NCBI RefSeq assembly: GCF_048403405.1
Contig: NZ_CP183129.1
DNA from: Escherichia coli
Lineage (GTDB): Bacteria > Pseudomonadota > Gammaproteobacteria > Enterobacterales > Enterobacteriaceae
Direction: 5' to 3' (one strand)
Length of the DNA stretch: 64,000 nucleotides
Part shown: piece by piece, positions 29,321-32,601 of the stretch
Layout of the letters: each line of letters opens with the position of its first letter
How positions within the stretch are numbered: position 1 is the stretch's first letter
The notes under the pieces: generated by a model
Databases searched by the model: none
Told to the model about the DNA's origin: nothing
Seen by the model: only the letters and a program-made list of their open reading frames with translations
Made by a program: the position numbers and the translations under genes

Positions 29321-30892
29321 TCAGGTCACCGGTGCCGGGTTAAACACCGCCAGCTGGTTATGCAGTCCCCATTGATCTGAGAAGGTTTTCTTCTTCCCGC
29401 TGGCGACGTCGAGAATAAAGTGGAACAACTTCCAGCCCACCTCTTCAATAGTTTCTTCGCCGGTAGCGATGGTGCCCGCATTAATATCCATTAAATCAAA
29501 CCAGCGGTTCGCCAGCTCGGTGCGGGTCGCCATTTTAATGACGGGTACCGCCATCAGGCCGTACGGCGTACCGCGACCGGTCGTAAACACTTGCACGGTA
29601 ATCCCTGAAGCCACCTGTTGTGTGCCACAGACAAAATCACTGGCTGGCGTCGCGGCGTAAATTAATCCGCGTTTAGTCGGGCGTTGACCGGGCGACAGCA
29701 CTTCAACAATTGCACTTTTACCCGATTTAGCAATGGAGCCGAGCGCTTTCTCCACCACGTTTGCCAGACCGCCTTTCTTGTTGCCCGGCGAAGGGTTGGC
29801 GCTGCGGTCGGTTTTTCCCATATTGAGATAGTTATCGTACCACTCCATCTCCTCCAGCAGCCGTTTGCCGACCTCTTCGTTCACTGCGCGTGGTGTCAGC
29901 AGATGGATCGCGTCACGCACTTCCGTGACTTCTGAAAACATCACCGTTGCGCCGCAGCGCACCAGTAGATCAGACGCATACCCAACCGCCGGGTTTGCCG
30001 TTACGCCAGAAAACGCATCGCTACCGCCGCACTGCATGCCGACAACCAGTTCTGAAGCCGGACAGGTTTCTCGCTGCCGTTGATTCAGTTTGTGCAAATG
30101 GCGTTCGGCGACCTGCAAAATATCCTCGACCATGGACTGAAAACCGACATGCTTTTCATCCTGCAAACTGACAATGCTGGCGCTTTCTACTGGAATAGCT
30201 TGCACATCATCCGTTCCAGTCAGCAGGCGTTCAGGCTGCAACTTTTCACAACCCAGACCAATCACCATTACTTCGCCGCCAAAGTTAGGGTTCAGCGAAA
30301 TATTGTGAATGGTACGAATAGGCACAACTGCCGCCGGTGCGTTAATCGCCACGCCACAACCGTACAAATGATTCAGCCCCACCACGCCATCGACGTTCGG
30401 GTATTTCGGTAGCAGATCGCGTTCAATGATTTTTACTACATAGTCCACCACGCCTGCCACACAGTGGACGCTGGTGGTGATGCCGAGCAGGTTTTTAGTG
30501 CCCACGCTGCCATCGGCATTGCGATAGCCCTCAAAGGTGTATCCTTCCAGTGGCGGTAAGGGTGCCGGGACTTTGGTTGCCAGTGGCAGCGTGTGTAACG
30601 GTGGCGCTTCCGGTAGCACAACCATTGATTCGTCGATCCAGCTTCCGCGTGGGATTGCGCGCACGGCGTAACCAATCACTTCGCCATAACGAATAATTTC
30701 ACCATTAGCCGGAATGTCCAGCAATGCGACTTTATGCCCCTGGGGAATATGTTCAATTAATTCCAGCCCATCCGGAAAACGCGTTCCTGCTTTCAGGCCA
30801 TTATCATTAACAATAATTGCCACATTATCTGTGTCGTGAACTTTTATATAAAACGCAGTTGGCGTTTCTTGTCTGATTTCGATGTTGGCCAT
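29321..30892 (-). CDS. garD: galactarate dehydratase GarD
   Basis: ORF track 523 aa; recognised as GarD. Confidence 0.95.
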
Positions 30893-31266
30893 TGTGCAAT
30901 ATTCTCCAGCCAGGGGTTATTAAAATGAGGACCTGGTCTCATTTAAAAATAAATGACTTCATTGGGTGAAATAAGAATGTCAGGAGTTTAAAGGCAGAAA
31001 TGTGATCAATGTCAATCATTTCAGGGATTGCAGTGCCGCGCAGTAAGGTAAAGCGCAAATCTGTGCTTTAGCGCGCAACCTTATGTGCATATGCTCAAAA
31101 TAATATTTAAATAGTATTAATTAAATTAGCATTTGCACAATGATTATTATTCTCGCGCTGCTTATACTAATTCCCGAGTTCATTGCCGTAACGGCATAAA
31201 TAAAACTCATAAATAACACCTTCCCCATAATAATAAAAATCAGCATAAGTACCCGAGGTAAATAAA

Positions 31267-32601
31267 ATGATTCTGGACACCGTTGACGTAAAAAAGAAAG
31301 GCGTGCATACCCGCTATTTAATATTACTGATTATTTTTATTGTTACCGCCGTTAACTACGCCGATCGTGCAACGCTGTCTATTGCTGGTACCGAAGTGGC
31401 AAAAGAGTTGCAGTTAAGTGCGGTTTCGATGGGTTACATCTTCTCGGCTTTTGGCTGGGCCTACTTGCTGATGCAAATCCCCGGCGGCTGGTTGCTTGAT
31501 AAGTTTGGCTCGAAAAAAGTTTACACCTATAGCCTCTTTTTCTGGTCGCTGTTCACCTTCCTGCAAGGCTTTGTTGATATGTTCCCGCTGGCCTGGGCAG
31601 GGATCTCCATGTTCTTTATGCGCTTTATGCTGGGGTTCTCGGAAGCGCCATCATTCCCGGCGAACGCCCGTATTGTCGCCGCCTGGTTCCCGACGAAAGA
31701 ACGTGGTACTGCCTCCGCCATCTTTAACTCGGCGCAATATTTCTCGCTGGCGCTCTTTTCGCCGCTGCTTGGCTGGCTGACTTTCGCCTGGGGCTGGGAG
31801 CACGTCTTTACCGTTATGGGGGTAATTGGTTTTGTGCTGACGGCGCTGTGGATCAAGTTGATTCATAACCCGACAGATCACCCACGTATGTCTGCGGAAG
31901 AGCTGAAGTTTATCTCAGAAAATGGCGCGGTGGTCGATATGGACCACAAAAAGCCGGGCAGTGTGGCAGCAAGCGGTCCCAAACTGCATTACATCAAGCA
32001 ATTGCTCTCTAACCGCATGATGCTGGGCGTATTTTTCGGACAATATTTTATCAACACCATCACCTGGTTCTTCCTCACCTGGTTCCCAATTTATCTGGTG
32101 CAGGAAAAAGGCATGTCGATTCTGAAAGTGGGTCTGGTCGCCTCGATTCCGGCACTGTGTGGCTTTGCGGGCGGCGTGCTGGGAGGTGTCTTCTCGGATT
32201 ATCTGATCAAACGCGGTTTGTCCCTGACCCTGGCACGTAAGCTACCGATTGTGCTGGGAATGTTGCTGGCTTCCACCATCATCTTATGTAACTACACCAA
32301 CAACACCACGCTGGTGGTCATGCTGATGGCGCTGGCTTTCTTTGGCAAAGGATTTGGTGCGCTGGGCTGGCCGGTAATTTCTGACACCGCGCCGAAAGAG
32401 ATTGTTGGCCTCTGCGGCGGCGTCTTTAACGTCTTTGGCAATGTTGCCTCCATTGTCACTCCACTGGTGATTGGCTATCTGGTAAGTGAACTGCACTCCT
32501 TCAATGCAGCACTGGTTTTCGTGGGATGTTCAGCGCTGATGGCGATGGTCTGCTACCTCTTTGTAGTTGGCGACATTAAACGTATGGAATTGCAGAAATA
32601 A
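31267..32601 (+). CDS. garP: galactarate/glucarate MFS transporter GarP
   Basis: ORF track 444 aa; recognised as GarP. Confidence 0.93.
   Translation: MILDTVDVKKKGVHTRYLILLIIFIVTAVNYADRATLSIAGTEVAKELQLSAVSMGYIFSAFGWAYLLMQIPGGWLLDKFGSKKVYTYSLFFWSLFTFLQGFVDMFPLAWAGISMFFMRFMLGFSEAPSFPANARIVAAWFPTKERGTASAIFNSAQYFSLALFSPLLGWLTFAWGWEHVFTVMGVIGFVLTALWIKLIHNPTDHPRMSAEELKFISENGAVVDMDHKKPGSVAASGPKLHYIKQLLSNRMMLGVFFGQYFINTITWFFLTWFPIYLVQEKGMSILKVGLVASIPALCGFAGGVLGGVFSDYLIKRGLSLTLARKLPIVLGMLLASTIILCNYTNNTTLVVMLMALAFFGKGFGALGWPVISDTAPKEIVGLCGGVFNVFGNVASIVTPLVIGYLVSELHSFNAALVFVGCSALMAMVCYLFVVGDIKRMELQK

Follow-up and report, generated by a model that had tools for sequence, protein, structure and literature searches.

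In the 64-kb window, that is, the whole stretch of Escherichia coli DNA that was analyzed, garD (29321-30892, minus strand) and garP (31267-32601, plus strand) are transcribed away from each other across a 374-bp spacer (30893-31266). The gene order past garP is garL, garR, garK, and rnpB, and the other flank carries prlF-yhaV and the aga genes. The RefSeq annotation of garD and garP was concordant (the strain was identical across the 801 bases compared), and the 801-base query across the spacer, between annotated garD and garP, was matched in 5424 of 5426 complete E. coli genomes. The GC content of the spacer was 35.6%, compared with 51.0% for the 64-kb window, which bears out the description of this 374-bp region as AT-rich in an earlier note on the sequence. 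The Shine-Dalgarno sequence of garD is GGAG (30904-30907, minus strand), 11 nt upstream of the ATG (30892-30890), and the corresponding CTCC was invariant in 22 genera. That of garP is GAGG (31255-31258, plus strand), which lies in a CCGAGG block conserved across genera. Two Dcm sites (CCWGG) were present at 30909-30913 and 30932-30936.

CdaR, also named SdaR or YaeG, activates garD, garPLRK, and gudPXD and regulates its own gene, according to two papers that cite Monterrubio 2000 (PMC11077982, PMC4551912), and the response of this regulon to galactarate, glucarate, and glycerate is given there as established. The genes and the spacer studied here are the same as those of the E. coli CdaR regulon (Monterrubio et al. 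2000, J Bacteriol 182:2672, as cited in PMC11077982), whereas the site positions given below are our own inference. The garD/garP spacer is an already known, classical CdaR-controlled divergent region, and the likely operator positions can now be stated precisely. With garD, garPLRK, and gudPXD, E. coli and Salmonella can use oxidised sugars that arise in the inflamed or antibiotic-treated gut.

The earlier note had also drawn attention to a near-palindrome beside the garD start, and this was found to consist of AAATGAG (30923-30929), the loop GACCTGGT (30930-30937), and CTCATTT (30938-30944). Its true span, 30923-30944, lies one base to the left of the approximate 30924-30945 first reported, and its measured distance from the garD ATG, 31 nt, agrees with the reported 30 bp or so. 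When the arms were extended to TTAAAATGAG and CTCATTTAAA, 9 of 10 positions were complementary. To compare the palindrome with chance, the spacer was shuffled 2000 times with its dinucleotide composition preserved. Of the shuffled sequences, 27% contained a perfect 7-bp inverted repeat with 3-12 nt between the arms, 9.5% contained at least two such repeats, as the real spacer does, and 14% contained 10-nt arms with at most one mismatch. The palindrome is real, but alone it is not beyond chance. Its pattern was unique in the 64-kb window, the sole other match having two mismatches.

Conserved blocks and fixed spacing in the garD/garP spacer

The garD loci of 80 Enterobacterales species and one Pasteurellaceae species were collected, the divergent spacers were extracted, and the spacers of 22 genera were aligned. 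The alignment showed sharply conserved blocks separated by unconserved stretches of fixed length. From the garD side, these blocks are AAGAATGTCAGG (30973-30984), which was conserved in 22 genera, AATGTGATC-N3-ATCACT (30999-31016), CTGTGCATCAGCGCCCA (31061-31077), TGTGCATATGCTCAAAATAAT (31084-31104), TTGAGCA-N5-ACAATG (31125-31142), and TTATACTG (31162-31169), of which 7-8 of the 8 positions were matched at a fixed distance in about 45 species. If the first base of the TGTGCATATGCTCA block is taken as the reference point, the remaining blocks are placed at -110, -85, -22, +41, and +78 in about 45 species, and no insertion or deletion was found across the 195 bp of this core in these species. 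The exception was the Enterobacter hormaechei group (L021, L027, and L035, with garD-garL spacers), in which exactly 22 bp are deleted, so that the garD -10 element and the CRP unit described below are 22 bp, or about two helical turns, nearer to block b and dyad a. The fixed spacing, together with this 22-bp variant, suggests that helical phase matters.

Block b (TGTGCTTTAGCGCGCA, 31062-31077; TGTGCATCAGCGCCCA in other genera) is located 22 bp from dyad a. In most genera 15-16 of its 16 positions were matched. It scored only -3.9 bits against the dyad matrix described below. Block b may represent half of a CdaR site, or else another CRP-like site, a weak one.

The garP gene was missing in several lineages (Salmonella arizonae L040; L008, L021, L054-L058), in which garD faces garL directly. 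Two of these garP-less loci, L040 and L021, keep box c (dyad c) and the TATACT promoter, with a leader of roughly 125-230 nt. In Klebsiella indica, only a C-terminal GarP remnant is left.

A candidate CdaR dyad at the gar, gud, and cdaR promoters

A 14-bp dyad with the consensus TGTGCA-N2-TGCACA was recognized among the conserved blocks. In order to avoid circularity, a 16-bp matrix was built only from the non-Escherichia copies of the TGTGCATATGCTCA block and was used to score the window. The best match in the 64-kb window was candidate CdaR dyad a (TGTGCATATGCTCA, 31084-31097), with 24-27 bits, and the second best was candidate CdaR dyad c (TTAGCATTTGCACA, 31126-31139), with 18-19 bits (18.7). 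In the 16-bp frame these matches start at 31083 and 31125; the next best match in the window had 12 bits or less with the symmetrised matrix, and 18 bits was reached about once per million positions of background sequence. Dyad a was matched at 14 of 14 positions in many genera, and 12 of its 14 positions are self-complementary.

The same motif was found upstream of cdaR. The 14-mer GCATTTGCACAATG adjoining garP has an exact copy upstream of cdaR in K-12, and the match there had 19-20 bits, whereas about 1.5e-4 such matches were expected in that 154-bp region. The motif is carried upstream of cdaR in six genera. In Klebsiella, Salmonella arizonae, Dickeya, Pectobacterium, and Pantoea the matches had 12-21 bits, and the boxes of these five genera read xTGTGCAnnTGCACAATG, followed after about 23 nt by TATGCT or TATTCT, with a CRP-like TGTGA-N6-CCACA preceding each of them. 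At both garP and K-12 cdaR, TTGCAC is followed after 24 nt by a -10-like hexamer, and the gudP promoter reads TTGCAC-N24-TATACT.

A comparison with the gudP promoter, which the earlier note had proposed as a check, showed that the garD/garP dyad motif recurs there in weaker form and at the promoter position that it also has upstream of cdaR. The garK gene, proposed for the same purpose, has no promoter region of its own in this layout, being the last gene of garPLRK. The gudP promoters of E. coli, Cedecea, Mangrovibacter, and one further enterobacterial contig have two weaker boxes 42 bp apart, which were weak in E. coli (0.2-4.3 bits) and reached up to 10 bits in Cedecea. The gene-proximal box is followed after 22 nt by TATACT, the same layout as at garP. 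In Yersinia, in which garP and garD form one operon, TTGGGCCGATGCACAA is followed after 22 nt by TATAAT, and at garD of Gallibacterium TTAGGCATTTGCACAA is followed after 22-23 nt by TATAAT. The 16-bp scoring frame always ended 22-23 nt before a -10 hexamer.

Among the sequence scanned, the dyad was found only at gar, gud, and cdaR promoters, and it was present upstream of all operons known to be CdaR-dependent (gar, gud, and cdaR), the gudP copies being weak. The CdaR protein is 82-92% identical across Enterobacterales, and in species that encode it, about 45 in the case of gar, the dyad was conserved in position and sequence. We infer that the TGTGCA-N2-TGCACA dyad is a candidate operator of CdaR, because cdaR is autoregulated, gar and gud are CdaR-dependent, and all of them carry the motif. 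The symmetry of the dyad would suit a helix-turn-helix dimer, and its position would be compatible with activation. No CdaR footprint, gel shift, ChIP, ChIP-exo, or SELEX experiment and no CdaR-DNA structure was found in the literature and structures searched.

A reading in which the TGTGCA blocks are CRP sites and CdaR binds elsewhere was weighed against this assignment. The half-site of the CdaR box starts with TGTG, like that of CRP, and TGTGCTTTAGCGCGCA (block b) is among the CRP sites predicted for a ChIP-seq peak of CRP (PMC4287617). However, the dyad was restricted to the gar, gud, and cdaR promoters in the scanned sequence, and we give very little credence to the CRP reading. An SdaR motif had already been predicted by comparative genomics, and two papers (PMC3223726, PMC2996990) state that it is also conserved in front of the known E. 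coli targets. It was obtained by the same approach as that used here and is probably the same element as the candidate CdaR dyad.

In the same work, a candidate SdaR site was predicted upstream of grtP-garK in Shewanella (Rodionov et al. 2010, 2011; RegPrecise; PMC2996990, PMC3223726). In Shewanella mesophila, sdaR was not adjacent to grtP and no motif match was found. In Aeromonas, in which the gene order is sdaR-grtP-garK, the spacer that separates sdaR from the genes for the glycerate permease and kinase starts with the sequence TTGTTGTAATGAACAA (L221 5117-5135). This sequence scored only 2.5 bits with the matrix, which is an enterobacterial one, and may be a diverged CdaR/SdaR dyad.

The sequence TTGCACAATG (30890-30899, minus strand) overlaps the garD start codon and reproduces exactly the half of the CdaR box nearer the promoter, together with an ATG. 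A functional CdaR half-box at this position was rejected, since the sequence was found only in Escherichia and was variable among E. coli strains (STEC313); the resemblance is probably a coincidence.

Predicted garP and garD promoters

The predicted -10 element of garP is TATACT (31163-31168, plus strand), which would place the start at 31175-31177 and give a leader of about 92 nt. Relative to this start, dyad c is centered at -42.5, a class II position, with a gap of 23 nt to the -10 element, and dyad a is centered at -84.5 for garP and at -123.5 for garD, always 42 bp from dyad c. The box, the gap, and the -10 hexamer of gudP and cdaR are arranged as at garP. The garP start (31175-31177; by our conversion, about 3,274,997-3,274,999 in K-12) and the garD start (30967; about 3,275,207 in K-12) are both predicted from -10 geometry alone, and a sigma-70 promoter scan of the spacer showed no canonical -35/-10 pair.

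Two further elements were seen near the predicted garP promoter. A Fur-box-like sequence, AATGATTATTATT (31139-31151), is located between dyad c and the garP -10 element and was found only in Escherichia. A small palindrome, GCCGTAACGGC (31185-31195), would fall within the garP leader, at about +11 to +21; two of its positions are polymorphic among E. coli strains, and K-12 has GTCGTTACGGC. The garPLRK Fur cluster was reported to be weak, and the site shifted by Fur in vitro was intragenic in garP (PMC2189734). Fur control at the spacer was rejected, since the published site falls inside the coding region of garP and the cluster assigned to the operon itself is a weak one. The FNR ChIP-seq peak at garP has been classed as 'masked by Fur' (PMC3688515).

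On the garD side, the minus-strand sequence of the conserved block is CCTGACATTCTT, which contains a predicted extended -10 element, TG-a-CATTCT (30982-30974, minus strand). The A at -11 and the T at -7 were invariant in the 22-genus alignment, and the distance of this element to the other blocks was fixed in about 45 species. The predicted start is an A at 30967 (minus strand), 7 nt downstream of the hexamer, which would give a leader of 75 nt. The CRP/FNR-type site TGTGATCAATGTCAAT (31001-31016) is centered 41.5 bp upstream of this start, and the gap of 21 nt between the site and the -10 element is class II spacing. In other genera, 12-15 of the 15 specified positions of AATGTGATC-N3-ATCACT were matched at a fixed distance, and the match to TGTGA-N6-TCACA was 8 of 10 positions in E. 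coli and up to 10 of 10 elsewhere. The right half of the site in Escherichia is TCAAT, not TCACT, and an FNR-like reading would be GTGAT-N4-GTCAA in E. coli and GTGAT-N4-ATCAA in E. albertii. Position 3,273,150 in the older K-12 coordinates presumably corresponds, by the coordinate offset that we assume, to about 31047 of the window, some 38 bp from the CRP/FNR-type site. This position is the summit of an FNR ChIP-seq peak assigned to garP (PMC3688515).

A CRP ChIP-seq peak in enterotoxigenic E. coli (ETEC) was reported with exactly TGTGATCAATGTCAAT and TGTGCTTTAGCGCGCA as its predicted sites (PMC4287617). The center of that peak is about 41 bp upstream of the garP ATG, some 160-220 bp off the predicted sites (about 210 bp in the case of TGTGATCAATGTCAAT), which places CRP within the spacer as a whole rather than at one particular site. 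CRP-like sites were also found upstream of the CdaR boxes at K-12 gudP (CGTGAAGTGGATTCCA; L002 8272-8329) and K-12 cdaR (TGTGAACTTCACCACA; L003 3358-3412), and thus in all four promoter regions the CdaR dyad is accompanied by a site of the CRP type. An independent study had already described a CRP site upstream of cdaR (PMC12871828).

A garD promoter driven directly by dyad a or block b was considered and rejected, since no conserved -10 element was found at the required distance. A separate CdaR box at the class II position serves garD in Cedecea and Gallibacterium, and in more distant Enterobacterales a weaker box, judged by box position alone, is located about 90-145 nt from the garD ATG. 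Because these other lineages have boxes of their own at garD, the arrangement in the Escherichia-Citrobacter-Klebsiella-Enterobacter group looks derived. It would be unusual for CdaR to be placed at a promoter only at -100 or further away, as is proposed below for garD, and this counts against the proposal.

The earlier note had suggested, without assigning sites with confidence, that this is likely the CdaR-binding region, which can be read as making the palindrome itself the CdaR site of garD. The suggestion held for the spacer, which contains two strong candidate dyads, but not for the palindrome. The proximity of the palindrome to garD and its dyad symmetry favor such a role. However, it scored -29 bits against the CdaR-box matrix, which means that it has no similarity to the motif common to the cdaR, garP, and gudP promoters, and no counterpart of it was found at the cdaR or gudP promoter. 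It had no counterpart outside Escherichia in the 22-genus spacer alignment, in which the other blocks were retained, and it was missing in every non-Escherichia genus with CdaR at 82-92% identity. The palindrome is located about 140-215 bp from the candidate dyads and corresponds to +24 to +45 of the predicted garD leader, downstream of the conserved garD -10 block. The palindrome as a CdaR operator was rejected because it does not share the motif; the score of -29 bits against the dyad matrix and its absence from genera that keep the other blocks place it outside CdaR recognition, as judged from these sequence comparisons, and we regard a CdaR site at the palindrome as extremely improbable.

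Proposed arrangement of the shared control region

The sequences of the blocks, their conservation, their fixed spacing, and the motif common to the gar, cdaR, and gud promoters are direct observations of this analysis. It is quite probable, in our opinion, that the spacer is a shared control region with two back-to-back, activator-dependent promoters, in which CdaR would bind at the dyads and the palindrome would take no part. At garP, CdaR at dyad c (-42.5) would overlap the -35 region and activate in the class II manner; a second copy of the dyad is located exactly 42 bp further upstream (31084-31097). At garD, CRP or FNR at -41.5 would take the place next to RNA polymerase. Since this position would be filled by the CRP/FNR-type site, CdaR would act on garD from the same upstream dyads (about -123.5) and block b (about -101.5), in a class III-like manner. 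This route from CdaR to the garD promoter is one that we infer, as are both starts and the assignment of the dyads to CdaR.

A bolder version is that the core between the two -10 elements, that of garD and that of garP (about 208 bp), holds one rigid complex of CdaR and CRP/FNR that coactivates both promoters, and that the Escherichia-only leader hairpin, with its fixed arms and changing loop, has been selected as an element of the garD mRNA as well. In such a complex CdaR would be bound to phased dyads, at distances of 22 and 42 bp, and CRP or FNR would occupy -41.5 of garD. If true, a single complex would explain why no insertion or deletion was found in about 45 species and why the sole length variant is one of 22 bp, or two turns. 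We put this combined proposal forward tentatively, as possible rather than probable.

Class II and class III CRP-dependent promoters are known, as are divergent regulons under CRP and a specific activator, such as malE-malK with MalT, melAB with MelR, and araBAD with AraC. The gar region as proposed resembles these CRP-coactivated sugar regulons in three respects: an activator site centered near -41.5/-42.5 and overlapping the -35 region, a further activator upstream that faces roughly the same side of the helix, and fixed spacing. It differs from them in that the global regulator, not the specific one, would be next to RNA polymerase at garD, and in that the gar arrangement is deduced from sequence. 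CdaR shares the PucR-type C-terminal helix-turn-helix (HTH_30) with the PucR family, which includes B. subtilis PucR and C. glutamicum GabR (PMC7652997). CdaR differs from that family in having a Diacid_rec sensor domain. To our knowledge, the operator sequences of the PucR family are unrelated to that of CdaR.

CdaR and its promoters are widely used as a glucarate biosensor (PMC4551912, PMC7544201), and in the literature examined the CdaR operator is without experimental definition. A precise candidate operator (TGTGCA-N2-TGCACA at -42.5 and -84.5), together with the proposed division of roles between CdaR and CRP/FNR, would aid biosensor design and regulon annotation. The palindrome would be of little importance, at most a small lineage-specific leader hairpin.

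The palindrome in the predicted garD leader of Escherichia

All 14 positions of the palindrome arms were unchanged in six E. coli strains, E. whittamii, and E. albertii, whereas the loop was GACCTGGT in E. coli, AATTCAAT in E. whittamii, and TATCGTGG in E. albertii, and an E. albertii-like metagenome contig had the loop TGTCGTGA. Between E. coli and E. whittamii, 6 of the 8 loop positions were changed at a background divergence of 5.7% (P about 1e-6). Between E. coli and E. albertii, none of the 14 arm positions was changed at a background divergence of 23-24% (P about 0.02), and 5 of the 8 loop positions were changed. Invariant arms with a species-specific loop are, in these comparisons, the only non-trivial property of the palindrome. 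They would fit either weak selection for a hairpin or a dimer site, or clustered mutational replacement in a quasi-palindrome.

Quasi-palindromes are known in E. coli as hot spots of template-switch mutation. The palindrome resembles these hot spots in being a short hairpin-forming repeat with an interior that changes by clustered multi-base events, and differs from them in that no donor template was identified. The 6 of 8 clustered loop changes at 5.7% background point to replacement in a single event rather than to point mutation. The E. coli and E. whittamii loops both resemble a perfect palindrome with 11-bp arms minus one base. These data, and the frequency of comparable repeats in the shuffled spacers, favor a neutral, functionless quasi-palindrome in which the loop turns over by multi-base events, for example by template switching in the hairpin. 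However, this alone leaves the unchanged arms in E. albertii, with flanks that are 23% different, unexplained, and a donor sequence for the switch was not identified. We find neutral turnover plausible, falling a little short of probable.

The conserved arms were also considered as a functional RNA hairpin in the garD 5' leader, selected in Escherichia for an effect on mRNA stability, pausing, or translation. The constancy of the arms in three Escherichia species despite replacement of the loop is consistent with such selection, and RNA of all four loop variants was predicted to form a hairpin of 7-8 bp with -5 to -8 kcal/mol (z -1.7 to -5.1). The E. coli and E. whittamii loops each extend the self-complementarity, by different bases. 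However, the fold of the whole garD leader was no better than that of shuffles (z = +0.8), and the orthologous garD leaders of 42 species had a mean z of -0.32, with none below -2. The longest inverted-repeat arm in orthologous garD leaders was 5.39 nt on average, compared with 4.68 nt expected, a slight excess. A second inverted repeat, TCATTTA-AAAA-TAAATGA (30939-30956), overlaps the right arm of the palindrome, so that the two hairpins would be mutually exclusive. There was no homologous element outside Escherichia, an Rfam covariance-model search gave no match to the palindrome at the family threshold (best E-value 0.11), and the garD start that would place the palindrome in the leader is a predicted one. 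RyhB-dependent changes of garD failed verification (PMC4666370), and control of the garD leader by this sRNA was rejected for that reason. A functional hairpin is unlikely in our judgment.

Conserved arms with a free spacer are also the pattern expected of a dimer site, and the palindrome might be the operator of another dimeric DNA-binding protein that reads only the 7-bp arms, 8 bp apart, and forms a roadblock at +24 to +45. However, the pattern had no second exact copy in the 64-kb window, no regulator with such a motif was found in the literature searched, the palindrome is statistically unremarkable, and none of the other genera in which the remaining control region is retained has it. 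Such an operator is highly unlikely. Taken together, a real function of the palindrome is improbable, if not strongly so; it is best seen as a weak leader hairpin or quasi-palindrome that is limited to Escherichia and plays a minor role at most.

A terminator scan of the spacer showed no terminator-like site. In the E. coli leader RNA, CCAGG of the loop is able to pair with a CCUGG that closely precedes the Shine-Dalgarno sequence. This pairing is part of the predicted minimum-energy fold and is not shared by E. whittamii or E. albertii. A seven-codon mini-ORF, MKSFIFK (30939-30962, minus strand), starts 5 nt after the predicted garD start and has its stop codon inside the palindrome arm; the mini-ORF lacks both a Shine-Dalgarno sequence and conservation. 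In six Enterobacter and Lelliottia loci (L012, L031, L032, L033, L039, and L044), an AT-rich repeat of a different sequence, TTTATTT-N11/12-AAATAAA, is located at about +15 of the predicted garD leaders, roughly at the position of the Escherichia palindrome.
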